DNA from: an uncultured Bifidobacteriaceae bacterium
Lineage (GTDB): Bacteria; Acidobacteriota; Vicinamibacteria; Vicinamibacterales; JAMQPK01
Length of the DNA: 64,000 bases
Direction: 5' to 3'
NCBI GenBank assembly: GCA_964356125.1
Contig: CAYHHH010000002.1
Location: 12,755 to 76,754 of the forward strand
Positions 1 to 62,652 of this stretch are shown here, piece by piece; the stretch's first letter is position 1, and each line of letters opens with the position of its first letter. The translations under genes and the position numbers were made by a program. The notes under the pieces were generated by a model. That model was not told where the DNA came from. It did not search any database and saw nothing but the letters and a program-made list of their open reading frames with translations.

Positions 1-1643
1 CCTGGATTCTTCGATGCCAGGTCGTCGATGATCATGTGTGGCACCCAGGACGTCTCGCCCGTCGCCGAACGCTTCTGCTCGAACCACGCCAGGCCCCAGC
101 CATGCGCTTCGAGGCTCGCGACGACGTCGTTCAACCCGTCGCCGTTCAGATCGGCCACGCGCAGCTCGCCACCGCCCGGACTCGCACCTGCGCGCGGCCA
201 TCGGCCGAACGCGACCGGATGATAGGGCCACGGACTGTCGACTGTCGACTGTCGACTGTTGACTGTCGACTGAGCCGGATGTTCCCACCATCCGTACGGA
301 GTGACGACATCCACGCGGCCGTCACCGTTGATATCACCCGCGCCAAGACCGTGCTGCGCGGCGACGGTGTACCCGGGCCCCGAGACGGGGCGGACCGTCC
401 ATGGGGACGTCGGATCGGCGGCGTTGACCGCTGCCACCGACACCATCCCGCCGTTGAGCACAACCGCATCCGGCGCACCGTCACCGGTGACGTCGTGGAA
501 TGCCACCACTTCGGCTGTGTTGGCAAAGGCGGGATGGCGATCCCACCTGCGCAGCTCCTTTCCCGGATTCACGTACATCACGAAGCTGCGCCCTTCCGAC
601 ACGACGACGTCGGGGAATCCATCGCCTGAGTAGTCGTGCGCGATGTTCATTGCGCCAGCGGCGTACTCGGCGCCAGGGTTGAAGATCCGGCTCACGTAGA
701 TCTCTCGCGACACGCGATAGTCGGGCCCGAGGAAATAGTGCGGCCCGGCAACGACGTCGAGCACGCCATCGCGGTTCACGTCGGCGGCGGTCGCGGACCA
801 GGCGTAATAGAAGTCGTTCAGCCGCTGCAGCCGGAACGCCGCGCCCGTTTGCTCATCGGTAAACACGCGGCGTCCGAGATCTTTGGTTTCAATCGATCGG
901 TATCGGACTTCCGTCGTCCCGCCGACGTACAGTCCTACTCGGCCGTAACGCGCGACGTGATCGTCGACGCGTCCGCTCGCCACGCCGGCTTCCGGTCCGT
1001 CGTTGAGCCACGAACGCAGGATGTTGGCGTCGAGGATCGACTCGAGCGTGTTCCATTCGCCCGGCCGAAACACGTATTCCGGCGGCGTGTACGGCGACCG
1101 CTCTGGCGGGCCGCCGCGTCCGGCAGCACCCGCGCCGCGTCCAGGACCGCCACGTCCCAGACCACCACGCCCCGGACCATCGGGTGCCCCTTGAGGCTGC
1201 GGAGGTGCGAGCGCGCGGACCGTGCCGCCGCCGCGCTCGAGCGGCTCCTTCGTGCGGAGGCGTCCCTGCGCGTCGAGCGTCACGGCGAACGCGCCAGGCG
1301 TGTCGGAGATCGAGACGAACACGCCCTTGTATCCATCCGCGGTCTTCTCGAGCCGCAGCACCAAGCCGGCTTGACACCCGGCCGCGCAGCGGAACGATGC
1401 CGCCATCTGCACGTCCTGCAAGGGTTTATTGAAGAGCAGCCATCCGCCATCCGGCGAGGACGGGGTGGCAGTCACCTCGCCGTTCTGCGCCGTCCAACTG
1501 GCGGCGCCGAGCTGCTCGGTGTCGGAAAGCGACGATCCGGCGAACGTCCAGTCAGGAACGAAATTCCTGTTCGCGTGCGATGCATGTTCCGTCGCCGCGG
1601 CGCAGAGGAGGGTCATCAGGGCCAATCGGATCAGGCGAGACAT
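1..1643 (-). CDS. Exported DUF1080 (3-keto-disaccharide-hydrolase-like) + FG-GAP/VCBS repeat protein; C-terminus runs off the window start (paralogue 1 of 3)
   Basis: Absent from the ORF track because it has no stop in the window. My reverse-strand translation from ATG 1643-1641 gives MSRLIRLALMTLLCAAATEHASHANRNFVPDWTF... It stays open to nt 3 and is collinear with ORFs 27577..29550 and 29551..31626 (DINGDGRVDVV, WWEHP, GLAWFEQKR). Confidence 0.85.
   Translation of the reverse strand, partial: MSRLIRLALMTLLCAAATEHASHANRNFVPDWTFAGSSLSDTEQLGAASWTAQNGEVTATPSSPDGGWLLFNKPLQDVQMAASFRCAAGCQAGLVLRLEKTADGYKGVFVSISDTPGAFAVTLDAQGRLRTKEPLERGGGTVRALAPPQPQGAPDGPGRGGLGRGGPGRGAGAAGRGGPPERSPYTPPEYVFRPGEWNTLESILDANILRSWLNDGPEAGVASGRVDDHVARYGRVGLYVGGTTEVRYRSIETKDLGRRVFTDEQTGAAFRLQRLNDFYYAWSATAADVNRDGVLDVVAGPHYFLGPDYRVSREIYVSRIFNPGAEYAAGAMNIAHDYSGDGFPDVVVSEGRSFVMYVNPGKELRRWDRHPAFANTAEVVAFHDVTGDGAPDAVVLNGGMVSVAAVNAADPTSPWTVRPVSGPGYTVAAQHGLGAGDINGDGRVDVVTPYGWWEHPAQSTVNSRQSTVDSPWPYHPVAFGRWPRAGASPGGGELRVADLNGDGLNDVVASLEAHGWGLAWFEQKRSATGETSWVPHMIIDDLASKNP
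233..274 (-). repeat. Heptanucleotide tandem array (GACTGTC x ~6) inside the CDS; encodes AQSTVNSRQSTVDS
   Basis: Direct reading: GACTGTC GACTGTC GACTGTC GACTGTT GACTGTC GACTGAG. It is in frame on the minus strand, between WWEHP and PWPYHP. Confidence 0.9.
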
Positions 1644-4296: not shown

Positions 4297-4473
4297 ATGA
4301 GACACCTTCGTCCGCGCGCCTACGCCTTGTTGATAGCAGCATTACTGTTCAACGTGACCGCGACCGAACTGGCGCCGGCCGAAATTCGGAGTCTCGAGAA
4401 ACTCCAGCACAGGCTTGGCCAGCTGGCGACGCCGCCGCGACAGATCGGCATCACGCTCCGGCTGGACTTCTAA
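4297..4473 (+). CDS. Small (58 aa) putative secreted protein
   Basis: Below the track's size cutoff. ATG is preceded by AGGAGCAGGAGGAG (SD). Translation: MRHLRPRAYALLIAALLFNVTATELAPAEIRSLEKLQHRLGQLATPPRQIGITLRLDF, ending in TAA, with a signal-like N-terminus. The track ORF 4272..4484 is in a different frame and Arg/Ser-rich. Confidence 0.4.
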   Translation: MRHLRPRAYALLIAALLFNVTATELAPAEIRSLEKLQHRLGQLATPPRQIGITLRLDF

Positions 4474-4476
4474 TTA

Positions 4477-4551
4477 GCTGGTAGCTGGTAGCCCGTAGCT
4501 GGTAGCAAGAGCTTTCGCTACCGGCTACCGGCTACCGCCTACCGCCTACCG
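4477..4551 (+). repeat. Long imperfect hairpin built from heptamer repeats: (GCTGGTA)x4, 10-nt loop, (GCTACCG/CCTACCG)x5
   Basis: Manual pairing 4475-4506 with 4517-4548 gives about 30 pairs, including 3 G-U and 3 mismatches. The 3' arm ends 3 nt before ATG 4555. Confidence 0.85.
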
Positions 4552-4554
4552 ACT

Positions 4555-6174
<1,620 letters not shown>

Positions 6175-25652: not shown

Positions 25653-27602
25653 ATGAAGACATCAAAGCATCGCGCGCTGAGCGCAGTCGTGTACGCGTCG
25701 GTCCTCTTCGCGACGAGCGCGTTCGCGCAATCCGAGAGCGCCGGCGTGAATCAGTACTTCAACAACTGCGCCTCGTGCCATGAGAGCAACGAGCCAGGAC
25801 ATCAGGCGCCGTCCACCGCCGTGCTCAAGCGGATGACGCCTGAACGGATTCTCGAAGTGATGACGACCGGCTCGATGCGAACCGCCGCCGCCGCCGTCAG
25901 CGACCAGGACAAGCGCCTCATCGCGGAATGGGTGGCCGGGCGGAAGCTCGACACCGATCTGGTTGGCGCCGCCGAGAAGATGTCGAACGTCTGTGCCAGT
26001 CATGCGCCGGTGCGCGAATCGAACACGCCGGCATGGAACGGCTGGGGTGTTGATTACCGGAACTCGCGCTTCCAATCGGGCGCGGCCGCCGGCTTGTCTC
26101 CCGGACAAGTGTCGCGCCTGCAGCTGAAGTGGGCCTTCGGATTTCCGGGCGCCACGGCGCTGTACGGCCAGACGGTGTATGACGGACGGCTGTATGTGAC
26201 GTCCAATGCCGGGTACGTCTACTCGCTCGACGCCGAGACCGGCTGTCTGCACTGGGGGTTCCGCGCGCAATCGGCGGTGAGGAGCGGGTTCACGATTGGC
26301 CGCCTCAGCAAGACCGATCCGCGGCTCGCCATTTTCTTCGGCGATATTCATGGCACGGCATACGCACTGTCGGCAAGCACCGGCGAGGAGATCTGGAAGA
26401 CGCTTACCGATCCGCATCCGCTCGCTCGGATTACCGGAACGCCGGTGCTGTTCGAGGGACGGCTGTTGGTGCCGGTCGCCTCGCTCGAAGAGCCGGAGTC
26501 GGGACAGGCCGATTACGCGTGTTGCACCTTCCGCGGGTACATGTCGGCGTTGGATTCGGCAACCGGCCGTCAGATCTGGAAGACATACACGATTCCGGAC
26601 GTGCCGAAGGTCGTTGGCAAGAACTCGCGCGGCAAAAACATGCTGGAGCCGGCCGGCGCCGGCGTCTGGGCGACGCCGACGATCGACGTGAAACGCCGCG
26701 CTCTGTACGTGACCACCGGCAACGCCTTCTCGGGCACGCCCAAAACAGCCAACGCCGTGATGGCGATGAACATCGACACGGGCAAAGTACTGTGGTCGAT
26801 GCAGGCGCTCCCATTCGATACGTGGCACAACGGCTGTGTGCAGAACATTCCCGGTGGAGCATTTCCCGCTCGGAGTGGCGGCGGCGGACGTGGCGGCCGC
26901 GCCGGCGGACCTGGCATTCCCTATCCGCCTGAAAACTGCCCCGCGGTGCTCGGACCCGACTGGGACTTTGCAGCGCCTCCGGCGCTCGCGACAACCAGCG
27001 ACGGCCGGGACATTCTCATCGCGCCGCAGAAGCAGGGGCTCGTGTGGGCCGTCAATCCGGAAAACGGCCAGGTATTGTGGAAGCAGGATGTGGCGCGCGA
27101 AATCGCCGGCGGCCGCGGAGAGACGCTCTTCGGCGCTGCGGTAGACAGCGAGAAAGCCTACTTCGGTCTGATCAGCAGCGCGCACCTCGCGCTCGATCTC
27201 AAGACTGGGGAAGAGGTCTGGTACGTACCACTGATTCCGCCACCGGGCCGTGAGAACCAGCGCGGGGTCGTCGGCGCCGTCACGCTGATTCCCGGCGTGC
27301 TCTTATCGGGCGCGCGCGATGGGATGATTCGCGCGGCGTCGTCGCGAACCGGTCAACTCCTGTGGCAGTTCGACAGTGCGCAGGAATTCACGACCGTCAA
27401 TGGCGTGCAGGCGCGCGGTGGTTCCGCCGCCTCCGGCGGCCCCATCGTCGCGAACGGGATGGTGTTCATCGGCTCGGGCTATCCCGGCTTCCAGGGGGGA
27501 CAGCCCGGAAATGTGCTGCTTGCCTTCGCGCCGGCGGTGCGGCTCGACGTGCATGCCGACGAGTTGAAGCGGAAAGCTAGCGACGCCGACCCCAGAAAAT
27601 GA
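25653..27602 (+). CDS. Quinohemoprotein-like dehydrogenase: N-terminal cytochrome c domain + PQQ-type beta-propeller (PVA-dehydrogenase-like layout)
   Basis: 649 aa with signal MKTSKHRALSAVVYASVLFATSAFAQ. CASCH heme motif near the N-terminus. Repeated propeller blades (LYVTSNAGYVYSLDAETG, GMVFIGSGYPG). Confidence 0.8.
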   Translation: MKTSKHRALSAVVYASVLFATSAFAQSESAGVNQYFNNCASCHESNEPGHQAPSTAVLKRMTPERILEVMTTGSMRTAAAAVSDQDKRLIAEWVAGRKLDTDLVGAAEKMSNVCASHAPVRESNTPAWNGWGVDYRNSRFQSGAAAGLSPGQVSRLQLKWAFGFPGATALYGQTVYDGRLYVTSNAGYVYSLDAETGCLHWGFRAQSAVRSGFTIGRLSKTDPRLAIFFGDIHGTAYALSASTGEEIWKTLTDPHPLARITGTPVLFEGRLLVPVASLEEPESGQADYACCTFRGYMSALDSATGRQIWKTYTIPDVPKVVGKNSRGKNMLEPAGAGVWATPTIDVKRRALYVTTGNAFSGTPKTANAVMAMNIDTGKVLWSMQALPFDTWHNGCVQNIPGGAFPARSGGGGRGGRAGGPGIPYPPENCPAVLGPDWDFAAPPALATTSDGRDILIAPQKQGLVWAVNPENGQVLWKQDVAREIAGGRGETLFGAAVDSEKAYFGLISSAHLALDLKTGEEVWYVPLIPPPGRENQRGVVGAVTLIPGVLLSGARDGMIRAASSRTGQLLWQFDSAQEFTTVNGVQARGGSAASGGPIVANGMVFIGSGYPGFQGGQPGNVLLAFAPAVRLDVHADELKRKASDADPRK

Positions 27603-29550
27603 ACGTGCCGCGCACGCTCGACGTGACGATGTCCATCGCGCCGTCTTTGTTGAGGTCCGCCGCCGAGAATTGCGAGCCGACGCCAGACCGATTGTGAATC
27701 AGCTCGGGCACGAACTCCGCGCCGCCCGGCGCCTTCCGATTTCGCACGGTGCGAAACCAATACAGCGCCGGAGTGCCGTAAGGATCGGGGTCGGTATAGC
27801 TCTCCAGGTGGGAAAAGTAACGCTTGCCCGTGACGTAGTCAGTTACCCCGTCGCCGTCGATGTCGGCTGCCAGCGACGCGTGCATTTCCGACAGCGTCAC
27901 GTTGCCGGCGTTCTTCGTCGAGTAGTCGTCGATGATCATGTGCCGCTCGAACGAGATGCGCCCATCCGTGTCGCGTTTCTGCTCGAACCACGCCAGGCCG
28001 AATCCGTGAGCGTTCAGCCCGGTGACCACATCGTTGAGCGTGTCGCCGTTGACGTCATACACGCAGAGCTCGGCGCCTCCGGCGCCCTCCGCTCGGCCCC
28101 ACCGCCCGAACGCCTCGGGATGGTAGATCCACGCTTCAGACTCTGGACTCTGGACTGTCGACTCTGGACTTTGGACTTTCGACTTTGGACTAGCCGAAGG
28201 CTGTTCCCACCAGCCAGCCGTCTGGAGAATGTCCACGCGCCCGTCGCCGTTGATGTCGCCGGCACCCAGGCTGTGACCGTATGCCATTCCCGGCGCCGAA
28301 ATCGTGTGCACCACCCACGGGCGAGTTGGATCGGCAGGATCCGGCTGCGCGTACGCCAGCGTTCCCTTCGCCGTGCCGGTGCCGGTCCCGAAGATCGCTT
28401 CGGGCTTACCGTCGCCGTCCACATCCCGCATGAGCACCAGCTCGCTGTTGCCCTGCGGCACAGCCGGGTACTTCGCCCAGCGCCGGCGCTCGCCTTTCGG
28501 ATTCACGTACATAAATAAAGGACGGTTCTCGCCGGACACGACGTCGGGCCAGCCGTCGCCGGTGAAGTCGAAGACGAAGTGAAACCCGGCGCGCGGAAAC
28601 TGATCGCTCGGATTGACAGTCGGCGCGACATAGATCTCGCGTCGCGACGTGTACTCGGGCCCCAGGTAGTAGTACGGGCCAGCGACGACGTCGAGGACGC
28701 CGTCGCGGTTGAGATCACCGACGCCGGCGCCCCAGGTGTAGAAGAATTCGTCGAGCTGCTGCATGCGGAACCGTGTGGATGTCTGCTCGGGTGGTACGAC
28801 CCGCACGTTGAGATCTTTGAATGAGACGTCCTTGAAGTGCACCTCGCCGCTGCCCACGAAGAGCGCGACGGGCCCGTAGCCGCTGGCGCGGTCGTCGGTC
28901 GTTGCAGCGGGAATGTCGACCCCCTGATTCAGCGTCGATCGAATGATATCGGCGTCGAGCGCGACACTCAGCGTGTTCCACTCGCCCGCGCGCGGGCCGG
29001 GCTGCGGAGGCATCAGCGGAGCGAGCGGTACAGGCAAGGTCATCGCCGGACCGCCCGTGCCCGCGCCGCCGCGCGCTGGACCACCGCTCCGGGCACCTGC
29101 CGCAGGCGGCGGTGGCGCGGAGCGGATGAACGCCGCCACGCCGCGCAGCGGTTCGCGCGCCGTCTCGCGGCCTGCCGCGTCGAGCGTGACGCGAAATGCC
29201 GCGAGCTCACCGGCATTGAGCGCGAGATACACGCCGGTCATACCCTCAGCGGTTTTTTCGGCGCGGAAGAGCACCCCTGTGCGGCACTCCCCGGCGCAAC
29301 GGAACCGCGTGAAGAAGTTCAGATCCTGATACGACGCATCGAGCACGAGCCAGCCGCCGCCGGGGCCCGACGCGGTTCCGATCAGCTCGCCGTTCTGTGC
29401 CTTCCACTGTGAGGAGCCGAGCGTATGCCAGCCGGCGAGCGTGGACCCGCTGAAGGTCGAATCCGGCCGGAAATCATGTGCCGGTCCCTGCGCGCCGATC
29501 CACGCGGCGGCCAGTGTCACGGCGGCGACGATGACGACTAGTCGTCTCAT
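27577..29550 (-). CDS. Exported DUF1080 + FG-GAP/VCBS repeat protein (paralogue 2)
   Basis: 657 aa with signal MRRLVVIVAAVTLAAAWIGAQ. DUF1080-like LAGWHTLGSSQWKAQNGELIG...GVLFRAEK. FG-GAP-like DINGDGRVD and DVNGDTLND. Its ATG directly abuts the stop of the upstream paralogue. Confidence 0.9.
   Translation of the reverse strand: MRRLVVIVAAVTLAAAWIGAQGPAHDFRPDSTFSGSTLAGWHTLGSSQWKAQNGELIGTASGPGGGWLVLDASYQDLNFFTRFRCAGECRTGVLFRAEKTAEGMTGVYLALNAGELAAFRVTLDAAGRETAREPLRGVAAFIRSAPPPPAAGARSGGPARGGAGTGGPAMTLPVPLAPLMPPQPGPRAGEWNTLSVALDADIIRSTLNQGVDIPAATTDDRASGYGPVALFVGSGEVHFKDVSFKDLNVRVVPPEQTSTRFRMQQLDEFFYTWGAGVGDLNRDGVLDVVAGPYYYLGPEYTSRREIYVAPTVNPSDQFPRAGFHFVFDFTGDGWPDVVSGENRPLFMYVNPKGERRRWAKYPAVPQGNSELVLMRDVDGDGKPEAIFGTGTGTAKGTLAYAQPDPADPTRPWVVHTISAPGMAYGHSLGAGDINGDGRVDILQTAGWWEQPSASPKSKVQSPESTVQSPESEAWIYHPEAFGRWGRAEGAGGAELCVYDVNGDTLNDVVTGLNAHGFGLAWFEQKRDTDGRISFERHMIIDDYSTKNAGNVTLSEMHASLAADIDGDGVTDYVTGKRYFSHLESYTDPDPYGTPALYWFRTVRNRKAPGGAEFVPELIHNRSGVGSQFSAADLNKDGAMDIVTSSVRGTFIFWGRRR
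28139..28194 (-). repeat. Heptanucleotide tandem array (GACTCTG/GACTGTC/GACTTTG x ~8) inside the CDS
   Basis: Direct reading with unit boundaries 28139, 28146, 28153, 28160, 28167, 28174, 28181 and 28188. Encodes SPKSKVQSPESTVQSPESE between WWEQP and WIYHP. Confidence 0.9.
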
Positions 29551-31551
29551 CTATTTCCTTGTCCGCGGCTGGCCGAGAAACGCGAATGCGCCCAGCTCGC
29601 CCGCCGTCACCAGGTCCATCACGCCGTCCTTGTTCAGATCCACGGCGAGCACCTGCGAGCCTGCGCCAGACTGGTTGTGCACCAGCTCGGGCACGAATTC
29701 GGCGCCGCCCGGCGCGTTCTTGTTGCGAACCGTGCGGTAGACGTACAGCACCGGTGCGCCGTAGGGATCGGGATCGGCGTAACTCTCGTTGTGCGAGAAG
29801 AACCGTTTGCCGATGACGAAGTCGGTCGTACCGTCGCCGTTCATGTCGGCGCACGTCGAGCCGTGGGGTTCGGAGAAGACCACGCCGCCTGCGTTCTTCG
29901 TGGCGAAGTTGTCCGAAATCATGTGCCGCACGAAGGAGATCTGTCCGCCGGCATCGCGCTTCTGCTCGAACCACGCGAGCCCGAACACGTGCGCCTGCAG
30001 CGACGTCACGACGTCGTTGAGTTTGTCGCCGTTGACGTCGTACACGCACATCTCGGCGCCACCGGGCGCGCCGCGGCCGTTTTGACGCCCGAAGGCCTGG
30101 GGATGGTAGATCCACGGACTCTCGCCTTTCGACTGTCGACTTGCGCCTTGCGACTGTGCGGGCTGTTCCCACCAGCCGTACACGTTCAGGATGTCGACGC
30201 GTCCATCGCCGTTGACGTCGCCCGCGCCGATGCCATGCGCCGCGTAGGTGCCGGGCTCGCCAACTTGCGTCGACAGCCACGGCCCGGTGGGGTTGGCTGG
30301 ATCGGGCTTCGCCCATCGCACGGCGCCCGCGCTCGCGTACACCAGGTCGGGCTTGCCGTCCGCATCGACGTCCTTCATCACCGACACTTCCGAGACGTTG
30401 GGGGCAGGCGGCACGACGCCCGCGTACGAGTCCCATCGTCTCGGCTCGCCCTTCGGATTCACGTACACCCGGCTGCCCGACGTCGACGCGAGCAGCACGT
30501 CGGGCCACCCGTCTCCGGTAAAGTCGCCGGCGAACTCGAGCCAGTTCGACGAGAAGTTCGTCGAGGGGTTGGTGGAGAGCGCCATGTAGAACTCGCGCAC
30601 CTTCGTGAAATCGGGCCCCAGGAAAATGAACGGTCCCGACACGATGTCGATGTTGCCGTCGCGATCGAAATCCGCGGCGCCCGACGCGAAGGAATAGTAA
30701 AAAGGCGTGAGCCGCAACATGCGGTAGTTGGGCGATAGCTCTTCTTTGACGACTCGTTTGAGGCTCAGATCGCGATACGACACATCGCGGAAATGCACCG
30801 CACCCGAGCCGCCGACATAGATGGCTATAGGGCCGAACGTGCCGAGATCATCGTCGGCCGCGCCGCCGCCGTTGGCGGAAGTGTTCACCCACGGCCGCAG
30901 AATGTTCGCGTCGATCACGACGTCGACATCATTCCAGTCGTTCGGTTTGAGTGCGGATGGCGCCATCAGATCGGGGAGCGTTGCGCCGGATGGCAGCGCA
31001 CCGCGCCCGCGTCCGCCGACCTGCGCGCCGGCGGCGCCCGGCGCCCCGCGTCCGGCCCCGCGACCTGCACCACCGCCACGCGCGGCGGCTGCGGCCGCGG
31101 CTTCAGCCGCCGATGGTGCAACGCGAATCAACCCGCCGCCTGCACGAAGACGCTCTCGTGTCAGGATCGTGCCGTTCGCGTCGAGCGTGACGGCGTAGCC
31201 GCCGACCTCGCCTTCGTCCAGTGAGAGGAACACGCCTTTCATTCCCGTCGCCGTCTTCTCCGCGCGCAGCAGCACACCTGTCCGGCACTCGCCCACGCAC
31301 TTGAAGTCGGCGCCGAACTCGACATCCTGAAACGATGTGTCGAGCACGAGCCAGCCGCCGTCTGCCGACTTCGGTGTGCCAACCAATTCGCCGTCGATCG
31401 CTTTCCACTCGGCGGCGCCGAGCACATGCCAGCCGGCGAGCGTGCTTCCCTTGAACGTCCAGTCTGGAACGAACGTGCCGCGCGTGCCGCGAAGAGGCAC
31501 ACCTGTGAGCGCGCCGAGTATCGCGACGAGGCCGAGTAATCGACGCGTCAT
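29551..31551 (-). CDS. Exported DUF1080 + FG-GAP/VCBS repeat protein (paralogue 3)
   Basis: Start trimmed to ATG 31551 (MTRRLLGLVAILGALTGVPLRG) so it does not overlap gene 31589..32596. Collinear with paralogues 1 and 2. Confidence 0.9.
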   Translation of the reverse strand: MTRRLLGLVAILGALTGVPLRGTRGTFVPDWTFKGSTLAGWHVLGAAEWKAIDGELVGTPKSADGGWLVLDTSFQDVEFGADFKCVGECRTGVLLRAEKTATGMKGVFLSLDEGEVGGYAVTLDANGTILTRERLRAGGGLIRVAPSAAEAAAAAAARGGGAGRGAGRGAPGAAGAQVGGRGRGALPSGATLPDLMAPSALKPNDWNDVDVVIDANILRPWVNTSANGGGAADDDLGTFGPIAIYVGGSGAVHFRDVSYRDLSLKRVVKEELSPNYRMLRLTPFYYSFASGAADFDRDGNIDIVSGPFIFLGPDFTKVREFYMALSTNPSTNFSSNWLEFAGDFTGDGWPDVLLASTSGSRVYVNPKGEPRRWDSYAGVVPPAPNVSEVSVMKDVDADGKPDLVYASAGAVRWAKPDPANPTGPWLSTQVGEPGTYAAHGIGAGDVNGDGRVDILNVYGWWEQPAQSQGASRQSKGESPWIYHPQAFGRQNGRGAPGGAEMCVYDVNGDKLNDVVTSLQAHVFGLAWFEQKRDAGGQISFVRHMISDNFATKNAGGVVFSEPHGSTCADMNGDGTTDFVIGKRFFSHNESYADPDPYGAPVLYVYRTVRNKNAPGGAEFVPELVHNQSGAGSQVLAVDLNKDGVMDLVTAGELGAFAFLGQPRTRK
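30117..30158 (-). repeat. Degenerate heptanucleotide array (GACTCTC GCCTTTC GACTGTC GACTTGC GCCTTGC GACTGTG) inside the CDS
   Basis: Direct reading. Encodes AQSQGASRQSKGES at the same WWEQP...WIYHP loop. Confidence 0.75.
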
Positions 31552-50909: not shown

Positions 50910-50958
50910 GTAGGGCTCGTTCGTAGGGCTCGTTCGTAGGGCTCAACTTAAGTTGAGC
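50910..50958. repeat. 13-mer tandem repeat (GTAGGGCTCGTTC x2 + GTAGGGCTCAAC) merging into a perfect 18-bp palindrome GCTCAACTTAAGTTGAGC (50941-50958)
   Basis: Direct reading and a reverse-complement check. Intergenic, between the IclR gene and the small ORF/MFS gene. Confidence 0.85.
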
Positions 50959-51168: not shown

Positions 51169-52425
51169 ATGAAGAAGCAGAAGCTGTTCGTCGCCAGTTG
51201 CCTGTCCATCGCGACGGCGTCGATGGTGTTTGCCATCCGCGGCGACGTCGCCGGGGCGCTGAGCCAGTCGTTCCACATCACCAACGAGCAGATGGGGCTC
51301 GTGTTCAGCCCGGCGTTCTGGGCGTTCACGATCGCCATCTTCATCAGCGGCAACCTGGTCGACATCGTCGGCATGCGCCGGCTGCACATCATGTCGGCGC
51401 TCGGCTTCATCGTCGGTGTGGCGCTCATCGTGCTCGCTCCGCGGCCGATCGAGCCGGTGGTGTCGCTGTTCGATCACACGGGCACGACGCTGCTGTACGC
51501 GGGCTTCTTCATGCTGGGTATCTCGCATGGGCTCGTCGAGGGGGTCATCAACCCGCTGATGGCCTCGCTCTACCCGGACGAAAAAACCAGGCGCATCACC
51601 TCTGTTCACGCCTGGTGGCCGGCAGGGCTCGTCATCGGCGGCCTGCTCGCCATCCTGATGAGCAACTTCGGGATCGGCTGGCAGTTGAAGCTCGGCCTCA
51701 TCCTCGTGCCCGCGATCATCTATCTCGTCATGGCGCTGTCGGTCAGCTATCCCGTGACCGAGCGCGTGACGTCGAACGTGTCCACCGGCACCATGTGGAA
51801 GGAAGCGACGCGCCCGCTCTTTCTTCTGCTGCTCGTGTGCATGTGCATGACGGCGGCGGTCGAGATGGGGCCGGACCAGTGGTTCCCCCGCGTGATGGGC
51901 GAGCTCGTGCCGCAGTTGAGCCCTGAACGGGGCAGCGGCGTGTTCTTTCTCGTGTATACGGGCGGGCTGATGTTCGTGCTCCGCATGTGGGGCAGCAACG
52001 TCACGCACAAGTCTCCGGTCGGGACGATGATTGTCAGCTCGCTGCTGAGTGCCGTCGGCCTGTACTGGCTGGGCGCGCTCGATGGCACGTCGAGCGCGGC
52101 CGTCGCGCTCATCGCCGCGACGCTCTTCGGCATCGGCAAGACGTTCCTGTGGCCGACGATGATCGGCATCACCGCTGAACAGTTTCCGCGCGGCGGCGCG
52201 CTGCTGCTGTCGATCATGGGGGGCACCGGCCTGCTCTCGGTGGCCATCGTGCTGCCGATCATGGGCGCGCGGATGGATCAGTACGGCCCGGGCGCCGCGC
52301 TGCAGATGGTGGCCGCGCTCGGCGCCATCCTGACTGTCATCTTCATCGGGCTCTGGCTGTACTTCCGTTCGCGGGGCGGATATCGCGCGGTCGCCATTAC
52401 TGAAGGCATTAAGAAGGTCGCGTAG
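51169..52425 (+). CDS. MFS transporter (sugar/H+ symporter-like)
   Basis: 418 aa with about 12 hydrophobic segments. N-terminus MKKQKLFVASCLSIATASMVFAIRGDVAG. Confidence 0.8.
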   Translation: MKKQKLFVASCLSIATASMVFAIRGDVAGALSQSFHITNEQMGLVFSPAFWAFTIAIFISGNLVDIVGMRRLHIMSALGFIVGVALIVLAPRPIEPVVSLFDHTGTTLLYAGFFMLGISHGLVEGVINPLMASLYPDEKTRRITSVHAWWPAGLVIGGLLAILMSNFGIGWQLKLGLILVPAIIYLVMALSVSYPVTERVTSNVSTGTMWKEATRPLFLLLLVCMCMTAAVEMGPDQWFPRVMGELVPQLSPERGSGVFFLVYTGGLMFVLRMWGSNVTHKSPVGTMIVSSLLSAVGLYWLGALDGTSSAAVALIAATLFGIGKTFLWPTMIGITAEQFPRGGALLLSIMGGTGLLSVAIVLPIMGARMDQYGPGAALQMVAALGAILTVIFIGLWLYFRSRGGYRAVAITEGIKKVA

Positions 52426-52442: not shown

Positions 52443-54194
52443 ATGAACACGCGGTTCTGGGTTCTTGGTTCGGCGGTTCTGGGGTCCTGGTTCTGGGTTC
52501 ATGGTGCGAGTGTGTTCGCACAACTCGGTCCGGCGCGGGCCCGCACGCAAACGGCCGCGTACGAGTTGACCGATGGCCGCACGATCGAGGGCATCCCTCT
52601 CAATCACGAGCGCGCCGACGATGTGCAGCTGCGCACGGCGGCGGGCCCGGTTCTCCTGCTCAGGAAATCGGGCGATCGGTATCGCGTGGTCACCTCCACG
52701 GTCGACTGGCCGAGCTACGACGGCTCGACAACCGGTAATCGCTATACCGCGCTGACCCGGATCGACAAATCGAATGTCGGACGGCTGGCGCCCAGGTGGA
52801 TCTACGCGATACCGACATCAGTGCGTCTGCAAACGACGCCGGTGGTCGTGGGCGGCTTGATGTATGTCACCAGCGCCAACGAATGCTATGCGCTCGACGC
52901 CGGCAACGGCCGCGAGGTCTGGCGCTTTCAGCGGCCGCGCACGAAAGGCCTCGTCGGCAACGCGGCCGGCGGTATCAATCGCGGCGTTGCGATCGCGGGC
53001 GAGCGTCTGTTCATGGTCACCGACCACGCGCATCTGATCGCGCTGAATCGGTTTACGGGCGAGCTGCTGTGGGACATGGTGATGGCCGACTGGCAGCAGA
53101 ACTACAACGCCACGTCGGCGCCCTTGATTGTCGGAGATTTGGTGATCGCCGGCACCGCCGGCGGCGAGCAGGGCGTGCGCGGGTTTCTCGCGGCCTACGA
53201 TCAGGCGACCGGACGCGAAGCGTGGCGATTCTGGACGGTGCCGAAGCCAGGTGAACCTGGATCGGAAACATGGAAGGGCACAGGCATCGAACATCCGGGC
53301 GGCGTCACCTGGATGACCGGCGTGTACGATCCAGCGCTCGACCTCGTCTACTGGACGACCGGCAATCCCAGTCCGGATTACAACGGCGACGAGCGATTGG
53401 GCGACAATCTGTACGCGAGCTCGGTCGTCGCGCTCGATGCGCGCAGCGGCCGCTTGAAGTGGCACTTCCAGTTCACGCCACACAACGTGTGGGATTGGGA
53501 CGCACAGCAGCCCACCGTGCTCGTCGATACGACATGGGAAGGGCGCCCGCGAAAGCTTCTTGTTCAGGCGAGCCGCAACGGGTTCTTCTACGTGCTCGAC
53601 CGCACCGACGGGAAATTTCTGCTCGCGAAGCCGTTCGTCAACAACCTGACCTGGGCGCGCGAAATCGGATCGGGCGGCCGGCCGGTGCTGGTGCCGGGGC
53701 AGGAGCCCAGTCCCGAAGGCACGCGCGTCTGTCCGTCGGCGCACGGCGCGGCGAACTGGTACTCGACGTCATACAGCCCGCAGACCGGGCTGTATTACGT
53801 GCAGACCCTCGAGAACTGCAATGTGTTCGTCAAGTTCGTCAGCGAATGGGCCGCGGGAAACGCGTACTGGGGCGGCTCCACGCGGCAGGCCGAAGATGCA
53901 CCGAATCAGAAAATTCTTCGCGCCATCGACGTGAAGACCGGGAAGATCGCGTGGGAACTGCCGCAGACGGGCCCCGGGGCCGCGCGCGGCGGAACGCTGG
54001 CCACGGCGAGCGGCCTGCTGTTCTTCTGCGACGACCAGGATCGATTTGCCGCCGTCGACGCGGCAACCGGAAAACCGCTCTGGCAATTCGGGATGAACAG
54101 CGTGTGGCGGGCGTCACCGATGACGTACGAGTTCGACGGAAGGCAGCACATCGCCATCGCATCGGGGTCGAACATCATCGCGTTTGGTTTGTGA
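52443..54194 (+). CDS. PQQ-type quinoprotein alcohol-dehydrogenase-family beta-propeller (no heme domain)
   Basis: 583 aa. NRYTALTRIDKSNVGRLAPRWIY..LQTTPVVVGGLMYVTSANECYALDAGNGREVWRF and later blades are typical of the methanol/ethanol DH family. The N-terminal hydrophobic core is encoded by a heptamer array. Confidence 0.85.
   Translation: MNTRFWVLGSAVLGSWFWVHGASVFAQLGPARARTQTAAYELTDGRTIEGIPLNHERADDVQLRTAAGPVLLLRKSGDRYRVVTSTVDWPSYDGSTTGNRYTALTRIDKSNVGRLAPRWIYAIPTSVRLQTTPVVVGGLMYVTSANECYALDAGNGREVWRFQRPRTKGLVGNAAGGINRGVAIAGERLFMVTDHAHLIALNRFTGELLWDMVMADWQQNYNATSAPLIVGDLVIAGTAGGEQGVRGFLAAYDQATGREAWRFWTVPKPGEPGSETWKGTGIEHPGGVTWMTGVYDPALDLVYWTTGNPSPDYNGDERLGDNLYASSVVALDARSGRLKWHFQFTPHNVWDWDAQQPTVLVDTTWEGRPRKLLVQASRNGFFYVLDRTDGKFLLAKPFVNNLTWAREIGSGGRPVLVPGQEPSPEGTRVCPSAHGAANWYSTSYSPQTGLYYVQTLENCNVFVKFVSEWAAGNAYWGGSTRQAEDAPNQKILRAIDVKTGKIAWELPQTGPGAARGGTLATASGLLFFCDDQDRFAAVDAATGKPLWQFGMNSVWRASPMTYEFDGRQHIAIASGSNIIAFGL
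52453..52509 (+). repeat. Heptanucleotide tandem array (GGTTCTG x ~8, one 1-nt interruption)
   Basis: GGTTCTG GGTTCTT GGTTCGG c GGTTCTG GGGTCCT GGTTCTG GGTTCAT GGTGCGA. It lies within codons 4-23 of ORF 52443. Confidence 0.9.
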
Positions 54195-62300: not shown

Positions 62301-62602
62301 CCACCATCGCCGCGTGGTTCGACAAGACGGCTTTCGTCGTGCCGCCCGATTTCACGTTCGGAAATTCGGGGCGGGGCATTCTTCGCGGCGACCACCAGTG
62401 GAACGTGGATTTCTCACTGTTCAAGCGATTCAGCGTCCCCGGATCGACGAACCTGGAGTTCAGGGCCGAGGCCTTCAACCTCCTCAATTCTGTCTACTAC
62501 AGCAACCCGAATACGAATATCGATACGGCGACGGGCGGCCGGGTGACGAGCACCTCGCTTGCCGCGAGACAGCTGCAGTTCGGGATCAAATACCTGTTCT
62601 AG
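59309..62602 (+). CDS. TonB-dependent outer-membrane receptor with N-terminal carboxypeptidase-regulatory-like domain
   Basis: Start trimmed to ATG 59309 (CAGGAGGA upstream), giving MTKILTRLALLAVLCVVAGNTVLAQLQSGRIVGTIYDTQRAGIPGATVSVTN. Ends ...FGIKYLF. Confidence 0.9.
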   Translation: MTKILTRLALLAVLCVVAGNTVLAQLQSGRIVGTIYDTQRAGIPGATVSVTNIRTNLSRSAVTDSQGNYVITPLDPGIYNVSAVMSGFQTTVRNNLELTVGQAARVELVLSLGGLSTEVQVTAETPLLNTESATLSEVITNEQIVDLPLNGRGFHELARLTSGVALLPPTGNTQPVRPEVVNGNVIGGVAGSQTRFLLDGVDITEEHQGGTWIQTSVDALQEFSVSQNAYSAEFHGAGATFNVTTKSGGNAFHGSVFEFMRNDALDSKNFFAVNKEKLERNQFGGTLGGPVMIPGLYDGRNKTFFFASYEGHRRQQGIVDVTNVPSAAQRQGDFSGLAPIFDPLTTATVGGVATRTQFANNQIPANRLSPQAQFFLRYIPLPNAPGNTYVSNPITQFNADQMTLRLDQEITSQHRFFARYSKHANEETRQDAWDTLGSTRLEGPAFNVALSLTSNFGSSLVHELRFSRMYGEYRSTAYFQGEGVNLVQQQAGVKGLEGIQDPNIGSLPAFTISGYQGFSGNAGDGRPKWQDRGEYELIDSLTWIKGRHILKFGGRMYHRNILFTDARSHNGVFNFNGSMTQRPVTSAGTGVSFADFLLGHPNSVTRSNPATWWGGSGTYWHGFFQDDYRLTNNLTVNLGLRYEYTPWLTSYRNQAAVFDPTRAKPIIVSSDSDQIDLGAQALADVGYRLFGDLIQTSSQAGVPLQLTKNDTNQWAPRIGFAYRLGDRTVVRGGYGMFYEAEGTSGRLNFHFLPFSMSETVNATTNVVPTRTMADFFLGVPFGAGVGSVGWNPLTLDADFGYDQRWNFGVQREIANRMSLEINYVGTKGTNQQEAEPINIPAAGPGNIQARRPYPRFGNMNIHSQARSSEYHALQTKLQKRTSGGLWYLVSHTWGKSETTVPAPGIGGNFTYDTGPAGFDIRHLLTMSFGAQLPFGRGKRFLGEAGTLANGLLGGWQAQSIVNYRSGLPFTPSVSRDVANTGAGGQRPNRIGDGELDDPTIAAWFDKTAFVVPPDFTFGNSGRGILRGDHQWNVDFSLFKRFSVPGSTNLEFRAEAFNLLNSVYYSNPNTNIDTATGGRVTSTSLAARQLQFGIKYLF

Positions 62603-62603
62603 A

Positions 62604-62652
62604 AAGGGGCAAGGGACAAGGGGCAATCATTGCCCCTTGCCCCTTACCCCTT
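62604..62652. terminator. Strong hairpin built from heptamer repeats: (AAGGGGC AAGGGAC AAGGGGC)AA-TCA-TT(GCCCCTT GCCCCTT ACCCCTT), between convergent genes
   Basis: Manual pairing 62604-62626 with 62630-62652 gives 23 positions with 2 mismatches and a 3-nt loop. It starts 2 nt after stop 62602 and ends 25 nt before stop 62677. Confidence 0.6.

Follow-up and report, generated by a model that had tools for sequence, protein, structure and literature searches.

In-frame heptanucleotide arrays at a hypervariable loop of three DUF1080/FG-GAP paralogues in Vicinamibacterales

In three minus-strand paralogues (A, B and C) of a Vicinamibacterales bacterium, each encoding a DUF1080 and an FG-GAP domain, one homologous loop is encoded by in-frame heptanucleotide repeats. 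These arrays were analysed in a 64 kb stretch of DNA (the window) and in related loci, and are best read, with a probability of roughly 70 %, as a heptamer microsatellite which drifts as a 21-nt in-frame VNTR and whose cassette was spread among the paralogues by gene conversion. A hypervariable loop driven by the microsatellite is supported by the allele data. No sign was seen of the repeat acting as an on/off switch, and phase variation, which the preliminary description had suggested, is not supported.

Anatomy of the arrays and their host genes

The arrays are located between the motifs GWWE(H/Q)P and W-x-YH, and the following features are referred to throughout:

1-1643, minus strand: gene A (DUF1080 + FG-GAP by Pfam), the C-terminal ~115 residues lying past the left edge of the window
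219-293, minus strand: loop of A with flanks GWWEHP ... WPYH, the flanks conserved over ~300 homologues
233-274, minus strand: heptamer array of paralogue A (TRF), encoding AQSTVNSRQSTVDSP
27577-29550, minus strand: gene B (657 aa, signal peptide), in which residues 452-473 form the loop
28139-28194, minus strand: heptamer array of paralogue B (TRF), encoding SASPKSKVQSPESTVQSPESEA
29551-31551, minus strand: gene C (P0243), 666 aa according to the gene calls of public assemblies
30117-30158, minus strand: degenerate heptamer array of paralogue C (lag autocorrelation and unit register), encoding AQSQGASRQSKGESP

Gene C is located directly upstream of B in tandem, and the full-length protein of gene A corresponds to P0121 (662 aa). 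Pfam assigns 3keto-disac_hyd (DUF1080) plus FG-GAP to all three proteins, the domains (PF06439 and PF13517/PF01839) scoring above the gathering threshold and agreeing with fold matches. Genes neighbouring the paralogues code for periplasmic sugar-oxidation enzymes. No Rfam family was matched anywhere in the window.

On the coding strand, array A reads GCT C AGTCGAC AGTCAAC AGTCGAC AGTCGAC AGTCGAC AGTCCG, array B reads AGTCCAA AGTCGAA AGTCCAA AGTCCAG AGTCGAC AGTCCAG AGTCCAG AGTCTGA, and array C reads AGTCGCA AGGCGCA AGTCGAC AGTCGAA AGGCGAG AGTCCG. Translation of the minus strand yields GWWEHP-AQSTVNSRQSTVDSP-WPYH (A), GWWEQP-SASPKSKVQSPESTVQSPESEA-WIYH (B) and GWWEQP-AQSQGASRQSKGESP-WIYH (C). 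For array A, TRF reports GACTGTC x5.7 at 233-272 with 93 % matches, in agreement with the five to six plus-strand copies noted earlier, and the longest perfect run (27 nt, 3.9 units) is also the maximum among the arrays. Array B is reported as a period-7 array x7.6 at 28139-28191; TRF ranks period 21 (90 % matches) over period 7 (84 %), which points to three-unit duplications. Array C is too degenerate for a TRF call, and its lag-7 autocorrelation amounts to 0.69 against values of at most 0.28 at other lags save lag 14 (0.68, two units); the lag-7 values of A and B are 0.89 and 0.80, respectively. Identical adjacent units number at most two in B and C. Array purity by TRF ranges from 68 to 93 % and array length from 40 to 56 nt. 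Ten occurrences of AGTCNNNAGTCNNNAGTC in the window contrast with none in 100 shuffles, so the arrays are not due to chance. Sequence, TRF, lag autocorrelation and translations thus all confirm the in-frame array at one loop of three paralogues proposed in the preliminary description.

All 16 sequenced arrays share one unit register, AGTC+NNN on the coding strand, with the consensus AGTCGAC. Over their 86 units, the consensus bases are conserved to A98 G100 T85 C100 G66 A81 C48 (in %), positions 1, 2 and 4 reaching 98-100 %. The earlier statement that the paralogues differ in unit variants is accordingly corrected to a single family in one register. The C loop of locus L084, at first taken for a separate heptamer (CARAGCC), reads AGCCCAR in register and belongs to the same family with a T to C change at position 3. 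A layout of GCN-N, five AGTCNNN units, AGTCCN and TGG is common to A, C, several B orthologues and L088. In the GC-rich genome, the unit's invariant A and its conserved T occupy synonymous third-codon positions, and GC3 is 0.45-0.60 in the loop vs 0.78-0.81 in the remainder of each gene; both point to homogenisation at the DNA level rather than to selection on the peptide.

An AlphaFold2 model (mean pLDDT 85.6, pTM 0.87) resembles integrin-alpha and YesW propellers as well as DUF1080 jelly rolls. Structure prediction agrees with the proposed location of the loop on the FG-GAP propeller: it is modelled as a coil joining two propeller strands, residues 457-470 having a pLDDT below 50, and is predicted to be disordered. 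The Bacteroidetes-type O-glycosylation motif D-(S/T)-(A/I/L/V/M/T) is not matched by the DSR and DSP of the loop.

Allele lengths and reading frame

In nearly all of ~300 homologues and 77 genome loci, ranging from Acidobacteriota to Planctomycetota, the loop comprises 7-8 residues, and few parts of the protein are less conserved than this ancestral loop. Heptamer-coded loops are restricted to a sub-clade close to the organism of the window. There, AGTC-type arrays occur in at least five paralogue lineages, the remaining members of which retain the ancestral loop according to the tree. Heptamer-loop lengths (in residues) are 8/15/22/29 in the B lineage, 9/16/23 and 15 in A, and 8/15 and 9/16 in C. 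Alleles thus differ mostly by 7 residues, i.e. 21 nt or three units, as expected from the earlier proposal that only three-unit steps keep the frame; a minority (lengths 11, 17, 19, 25 and 26) falls off pure 7-residue steps and needs extra small indels. The closest relative of C (P0258, 90 % identity) differs from it in the loop by exactly 7 residues, as does P0004 from B. Even inside 90 %-identity clusters, loop lengths range from 7 to 29 residues, while GWWEQP and W-x-YH on either side do not vary. The proposed hypervariability is therefore borne out by differing copy numbers between close strains. Apart from the minority alleles, the loop varies by whole multiples of an in-frame period between conserved flanks and thus represents an in-frame coding VNTR.

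Such extreme allelic diversity, even among close relatives, could also reflect adaptive diversification, with the loop contacting a substrate, a partner or an antagonist, new lengths and sequences being favoured and the microsatellite being retained as their generator. In line with this, the proteins are secreted, the same loop is affected in at least five paralogue lineages, and other A orthologues carry an unrelated second insertion (LPAEAQGAKAG) at the same site. Against it, the loop is predicted to be disordered, the DNA repeat determines its peptide, the codons of which are poorly adapted, and the ancestral loop was already poorly conserved, which fits simple tolerance. On balance, adaptive diversification appears unlikely.

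The contingency locus envisaged in the preliminary description would require that one-unit slippage toggles each paralogue at high frequency, as in neuO of Escherichia coli K1. Several properties are compatible with such a switch: the 7-nt unit, located inside the ORFs of A, B and C, is not divisible by 3, copy number varies from strain to strain, and the proteins bear signal peptides. Moreover, slippage by a single unit would cost the protein its final ~190 residues, in line with the predicted truncation. However, none of ~33 distinct alleles is out of frame, whereas 65.6 % of 64 genomes are out of frame at neuO, a gene of the E. coli K1 prophage CUS-3 with a poly-psi heptanucleotide tract (5'-AAGACTC-3') of 3-53 units, most commonly 20 (PMC13001214). 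The present arrays, at 68-93 % purity, contain at most 3.9 perfect units, and the adjoining sugar-oxidation genes offer no obvious target for bet-hedging.

Most alleles were recovered by protein homology, by which split ORFs are possibly under-sampled; this is countered by the fact that the scores of N-terminal fragments would have sufficed for listing, and no such fragment stops at the loop. Seven of the ~33 alleles are without frame bias (A and C of the window, the C loops beside B in L081, L082 and L084, and two frame-agnostic matches), and had two thirds of alleles been OFF, their all being in frame would have P ~6e-4. The two matches are the only loci found by a frame-agnostic DNA scan of JGI metagenome contigs with the pattern TGGTGGGARCANCC..AGTCNNNAGTC..TGGNNNTAYCA; both are in frame, a number too small for a strong test alone. 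The short high-identity homologues P0160, P0162, P0167, P0202, P0215 and P0352-P0360 were considered as candidates for a frameshift at the array and rejected, since they result from contig-end cuts or upstream frameshifts; in the truncated homologues the break lies upstream of the loop. Loops B and C are identical in three independent assemblies of the strain, without any indel at the consensus level, from which low-frequency variants of +/-1 unit would escape. A contingency locus is therefore regarded as highly improbable.

The chance that the arrays are artefacts of assembly or sequencing is practically negligible. Short repeats can mis-assemble, and the database fragment P0164 terminates inside an array, but the same sequence was obtained in the three independent assemblies, dozens of related alleles stem from unrelated metagenomes and sequencing centres, and arrays of 40-56 nt fit well inside a single read.

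Period-7 excess, origin and spread of the cassette

In the window, 6 of the 8 tandem arrays with a copy number of at least 3.5 have period 7 (a small sample from 64 kb), compared with 10 of 15 in close metagenomic loci and 6 of 30 in other Acidobacteria (1.23 Mb); a lag scan agrees with the excess. Period 7 is hence locally dominant over other periods and copy number varies between close strains, the two points on which the preliminary description had made its reading depend. Elsewhere in the window, heptamer arrays occur as intergenic hairpins, with inverted pairs at 4475-4555 and 62604-62652, and only these intergenic inverted arrays fold strongly. The suggestion that self-folding of the array favours slippage finds little backing, as the DNA folding z-scores of the three coding arrays are -1.96, -1.67 and +0.94.

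According to the proposed mechanism, the 7-8-residue ancestral loop linking two β-strands of the FG-GAP propeller gave way to the AGTC+NNN microsatellite (consensus AGTCGAC). As 7 and 3 have no common factor, three units amount to 21 nt and would encode the same stop-free, hydrophilic heptapeptide (~Q-S-T-V-D-S-R) in every frame, a repeat that a disordered excursion may tolerate. Unit number would be altered, probably, by replication slippage or alternatively by unequal recombination, and purifying selection on the downstream propeller blades would purge all changes other than net multiples of three units. Through this filtering, the loop would evolve as a 21-nt in-frame VNTR in 7-residue steps. 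The array probably originated once, with the AGCCAGG native to the ancestral loop of the B lineage as its source; short-tract gene conversion, anchored at the conserved flanks GGNTGGTGGGARCANCC and TGGNNNTAYCAY, then probably carried it into the other paralogues.

Nucleotide identity among A, B and C is 57-63 % overall vs 72-85 % over the loop. Outside GWWEQP...W-x-YH the flanks are paralogue-specific, so that any conversion tract would be shorter than ~100 nt; extended tracts were rejected on the same grounds. The window and L081 have orthologous C loops that are more alike than the paralogous loops within the genome of the window, which argues for rare rather than ongoing conversion. Silent donor copies of AGTCNNNAGTCNNNAGTC (pilE/pilS type) were not detected in the window plus 88 loci (~1.5 Mb), where this sequence is confined to expressed loops.

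Alternatively, each paralogue may have formed its own array in situ from a native proto-repeat, without transfer. Heptamer-like seeds are indeed present in ancestral loops (AGCCAGG in B, CAGCCGA CGACCGA in C), B arrays retain the ancestral boundaries GCY-AGYCA... and ...AGYCTGG-NNCG-TGG, and elsewhere the lineage tends to form heptamer arrays from other units. Nevertheless, at least five lineages share one unit family and its register relative to the flanks, often with 5 2/3 units, and the ancestral residues SGFGG of A were replaced, not expanded. In addition, B and C have sub-motifs in common (e.g., AGTCGAA AGGCGAY AGTCCG), and the loop AQSKGDSP is found in both P0005 (B) and P0258 (C). Independent origins are consequently considered quite unlikely. 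Directed renewal of the cassette at this loop, by targeted short-patch conversion combined with a polymerase or repair bias to 7-nt slippage, is judged improbable; if true, it would constitute population-level diversification of a functional loop, a microsatellite counterpart of cassette/DGR systems in a free-living soil bacterium.

Significance and relation to known repeat systems

Drift as a 21-nt VNTR with rare conversion would provide a clean natural case of a repeat unit that is not a multiple of 3 acting as an in-frame VNTR, selection admitting only three-unit steps. It would also imply that, in an uncultured soil lineage, a genome-wide mutational bias to heptamer arrays can reshape the loops of proteins and probably also signal peptides. 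The cassette, present in at least five paralogue lineages, offers a tractable test case for short-tract gene conversion and accounts for length-variable, low-confidence loops in annotations of the widespread, uncharacterised DUF1080/FG-GAP family. As a caution, repeat arithmetic alone is insufficient for inferring phase variation. A literature search retrieved no paper on heptanucleotide repeats in Acidobacteria/Acidobacteriota, and one for cyanobacterial STRR likewise yielded nothing.

In-frame coding VNTRs are known to vary the length of surface and secreted bacterial proteins, as exemplified by the SD repeats of staphylococcal Sdr/Clf proteins and the X region of spa. With these the present loop shares whole-codon length polymorphism in a low-complexity, disordered segment, here probably produced by slippage or unequal recombination. 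In contrast, its primary unit is 7 nt, the 21-nt in-frame period arising from filtering by selection, and the variable part is no stalk or linker but a loop of a folded propeller. Paralogues are also known to undergo concerted evolution by short-tract gene conversion, which is resembled here by one cassette common to ~60 %-identical paralogues and bounded by short conserved flanks; conversion is, however, only the probable route in the present case, its tract would be unusually short (<~100 nt) and its events rare.

Like neuO, the present arrays are coding heptanucleotide repeats which read through at unit numbers divisible by 3 and encode a repeating heptapeptide, with all frames stop-free. 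The neuO tract is located at the 5' end, long, pure and about two thirds OFF, whereas the present arrays are internal (residue ~450 of ~660), consist of 3-8 impure units and were never seen OFF; unlike in neuO, several paralogues carry the array at one homologous loop. More generally, in many bacteria the most abundant class of long SSRs is that of heptanucleotide repeats; their units are heterogeneous, and inverted pairs occur (PMC4692102, PMC4679880). Examples reported from Mrazek et al. 2007, as quoted in these two articles, include GGGAATC in Xanthomonas, GGGGAYT in Nostoc and the heptanucleotides of Calothrix. The present arrays likewise show dominance of period 7, length variation between close relatives and heterogeneous units round a conserved core, (AGTCNNN)n as compared to (GGGANTN)n, and the window pairs at 4475-4555 and 62604-62652 correspond to the hairpin-forming inverted pairs. 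While bacterial heptameric SSRs are mostly intergenic and often G-rich, the present arrays lie in frame within coding sequence and belong to a single protein family. The system is a further example of an already known kind.

Heptamer arrays in three FG-GAP paralogues

Three genes of the window each encode a 3-keto-disaccharide hydrolase (DUF1080) domain together with FG-GAP repeats, and each harbours a heptamer array in the loop between the motifs GWWE(H/Q)P and W-x-YH:

1-1643, minus strand: gene A, incomplete at the window edge (662 aa in full length, P0121); array at 233-274
27577-29550, minus strand: gene B, 657 aa; array at 28139-28191
29551-31551, minus strand: gene C, 666 aa; array at 30117-30158

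On the plus strand, TRF detected about 5.7 copies of GACTGTC in A (93 % matches) and 7.6 copies of a period-7 unit in B, where a period of 21 scored higher than one of 7; the degenerate array of C is under the TRF threshold. Lag-7 autocorrelation amounted to 0.89, 0.80 and 0.69 for A, B and C, respectively, with all other lags at or below 0.32 except lag 14 (two units). The window contains 10 copies of AGTCNNNAGTCNNNAGTC, which was absent from all of 100 shuffles. The three arrays are real and non-random. Their translations (A, GWWEHP-AQSTVNSRQSTVDSP-WPYH; B, GWWEQP-SASPKSKVQSPESTVQSPESEA-WIYH; C, GWWEQP-AQSQGASRQSKGESP-WIYH) exactly reproduce those of the preliminary description, which had also recognized the GACTGTC array and the 7-nt periodicity of the other two paralogues.

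On the coding strand, these and 13 related arrays consist of AGTC followed by three variable positions, all in the same register (86 units; A 98 %, G 100 %, T 85 %, C 100 %, G 66 %, A 81 %, C 48 %; consensus AGTCGAC) and therefore form one unit family, not the different unit variants assumed previously. Since every codon phase is visited along the array, synonymous third positions are frequently taken by the invariant A and the conserved T; together with a GC3 of 0.45-0.60 in the loop versus 0.78-0.81 in the remainder of each gene, this argues for conservation acting on the DNA, without being dictated by the peptide.

An AlphaFold2 model of B from a 76-sequence alignment (mean pLDDT 85.6, pTM 0.87) yielded Foldseek matches to integrin-alpha and YesW FG-GAP propellers, aldos-2-ulose dehydratase and DUF1080 jelly rolls. 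Residues 457-470 (pLDDT <50) are modelled as coil between strands 446-449 (GWWE) and 475-478 (IYHP), which agrees with the earlier assignment of the array to a propeller loop and would fit a disordered segment projecting from the propeller. The DUF1080 domain of all three paralogues also contains a low-complexity insert rich in G/R/P/A (A, 1133-1178; C, 31032-31060; B, residues 154-163, pLDDT <50), with a tandem periodicity of its own in A (15 nt) and C (7 nt). Neighbouring genes in the window (25653-27602) and at the related loci L001, L081 and L089 encode PQQ-dehydrogenase/cytochrome c fusions, TonB-dependent receptor and GMC oxidoreductase as well as AP_endonuc_2 (xylose-isomerase-like) and metallo-beta-lactamase-fold proteins; the family context suggests periplasmic sugar oxidation (3-keto-sugar).

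Loop length and reading frame

The nearest genomes are MAGs of the order Vicinamibacterales (Acidobacteriota). Nearly all members of a comparison set of ~360 homologues from three protein searches and 77 species-representative genome loci share a fixed loop of 7-8 residues between GWWEQP and W-x-YH, which spans Acidobacteriota to Planctomycetota and Verrucomicrobiota (ancestral loops ASGFGGP, PAGANQGT and AKATTEM in orthologues of A, B and C, respectively). Heptamer-coded loops are confined to sequences closely related (75-90 % identity) to the individual paralogues.

Table. Loop lengths in residues (P, homologous proteins; L, related loci)
A lineage: 9, P0126; 15, window A; 16, P0122, P0123, P0250; 19, P0256; 23, P0138
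B lineage: 8, P0005, P0006; 15, P0003, P0004, P0007, P0010, P0018, P0020; 22, window B; 29, P0249; further lengths, 11, 19, 25, 26
C lineage: 8, P0258; 9, P0278, P0311; 15, window C, P0269; 16, P0271, P0320, P0324, C loops of L081 and L084

The main step between alleles is 7 residues, i.e. 21 nt or three units: C exceeds its nearest relative, P0258 (90 % identity), by exactly 7 loop residues, and a single 7-residue block separates P0004 from B. A single 90 %-identity cluster can include loops of anything between the ancestral 7 and 29 residues. Loop length is thus far more variable than the remaining protein, which bears out the view of a hypervariable loop with copy-number differences between strains; that this variability reflects adaptive diversification of the loop is considered unlikely. 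In A orthologues P0125, P0133, P0139, P0251 and P0252, a different insertion (LPAEAQGAKAG) is found at this site, which hence accepts non-AGTC insertions.

The preliminary description had proposed a contingency (phase-variable) locus, in which unit slippage would switch the paralogues on and off. Its arithmetic is correct, as a one-unit slip loses the frame and would ruin the C-terminal ~190 residues; however, the alleles sampled lack the signature that a switch would leave in populations: none of ~33 distinct heptamer-type alleles (14 B, 7 A, 10 C, 2 other paralogues) is out of frame. Seven of these were sampled without bias to intact frames, namely window A and C, the C genes adjoining looked-up B genes in L081, L082 and L084, and L087 and L088, the two matches of a frame-agnostic DNA scan of metagenomes. 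In contrast, neuO of E. coli K1, the benchmark heptanucleotide contingency gene, is out of frame in 42 of 64 complete genomes and has tracts of 3 to 53 units (PMC13001214), compared to a longest perfect run of 3.9 units here. Three independent assemblies of the strain (ERZ4201063, ERZ4201064 and SRR24858484; 99.98-99.99 % identity to the window) contain no gap at loops B and C. Self-folding of the arrays, previously supposed to favour slippage, is weak (DNA folding z-scores of -1.96, -1.67 and +0.94 for A, B and C). On/off switching is therefore regarded as very unlikely.

No N-terminal fragments ending at the loop appeared in the hit lists, though their scores would suffice for listing, and truncated homologues are interrupted before the loop is reached or run off a contig end. 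A orthologues P0167, P0202 and P0215 (contigs of 9.9, 26 and 152 kb) carry their frameshift outside the array, ~20-60 residues before the loop; they probably represent assembly indel errors or pseudogenes.

The favoured reading (probability about 0.7) is that a heptanucleotide microsatellite occupies a permissive propeller loop and, under purifying selection for frame, would evolve as a 21-nt in-frame VNTR, with rare short-tract conversion among paralogues.

Distribution of the array among paralogues

A neighbour-joining tree that excluded the loop placed the heptamer-bearing B orthologues in a single clade and showed heptamer and ancestral loops intermixed in the C clade; L083 and L085 combine a heptamer-loop B with an adjacent C of ancestral loop. 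A, L087 and L088 represent three more, distant paralogue lineages carrying the same array, and the motif was not found elsewhere in the ~1.5 Mb sampled. The 15-residue layout 'GCN-N, five AGTCNNN units, AGTCCN, TGG' is common to A, C, several B orthologues and L088, sub-motifs such as AGTCGAA AGGCGAY AGTCCG are common to B and C, and P0005 (B) and P0258 (C) have the same loop, AQSKGDSP. Nucleotide identity among A, B and C is 57-63 % overall versus 72-85 % across the loop, and beyond the GWWEQP and W-x-YH motifs the sequence remains paralogue-specific. As judged from these sequences, short-tract gene conversion (under ~100 nt), anchored on the conserved flanks, probably carried the array between paralogues. 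B is the likely source of the cassette, since its arrays (GCT-AGTCAAC...AGTCTGG-AACC-TGG) retain the ancestral boundaries (GCC-AGCCAGG-GCACG-TGG). Such transfers would be rare, as orthologous C loops (window versus L081) are more alike than paralogous loops within the source genome.

Heptamer repeats in the window and in other bacteria

Period 7, which the preliminary description had proposed to compare with other periods, is dominant in the window: it accounts for 6 of 8 arrays with at least 3.5 copies (64 kb). The respective counts are 10 of 15 in close metagenomic loci (60 kb), 4 of 12 in other Vicinamibacterales MAG loci (152 kb) and 6 of 30 in other Acidobacteria and outgroups (1.23 Mb). 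The remaining heptamer arrays of the window are built from units different from the AGTC family, among them:

4475-4555: inverted arrays TAGCTGG x4.6, then GCTACCG x5.6; hairpin, -23.9 kcal/mol, z = -4.45
52453-52500, plus strand: GGTTCTG x6.7, in frame at the start of a PQQ-dehydrogenase ORF (52443-54194)
62604-62652: inverted arrays AAGGGGC x3.3 / TTGCCCC x3.3; hairpin, -22.1 kcal/mol, z = -6.26

Both hairpins are strong. The first sits precisely in the gap that separates the TAA stop (4471-4473) ending a 58-aa ORF (ATG 4297) from the ATG of the next ORF at 4555 and, devoid of a T-tract, is not a canonical terminator. The other directly follows a TAG stop (62600-62602) and matched no Rfam family. 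The GGTTCTG array encodes the hydrophobic core of the PQQ-dehydrogenase signal peptide, MNTRFWVLGSAVLGSWFWVHGASVFAQ, adding a second case of a heptamer array that codes for a sequence-tolerant segment. A hairpin-of-heptamers architecture as in the window is also present in a related genome (L006 1764-1908, Vicinamibacterales MAG MFD05567.bin.1.13; CAATGGG / CAATGAC arrays, then inverted CCATTGC x8.9). A perfect 13-nt tandem repeat, GTAGGGCTCGTTC x2.7 (50910-50944, 100 % matches), is located upstream of a membrane-transporter-like ORF starting at 51169.

According to two papers that both cite Mrazek et al. 2007 (PMC4692102, PMC4679880), no long SSR class is more abundant in many bacteria than heptanucleotide repeats, whose units are heterogeneous, which occur as inverted pairs and which vary in length between strains; their excess has tentatively been attributed to the DNA length held by the polymerase. 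A literature search retrieved no papers on heptanucleotide repeats in Acidobacteria. The period-7 bias, heterogeneous units and inverted pairs of the window fit this published picture. Coding VNTRs and heptameric bacterial SSRs are both known, and the present arrays are another example of both kinds; what sets them apart is the spread of the cassette across paralogues.
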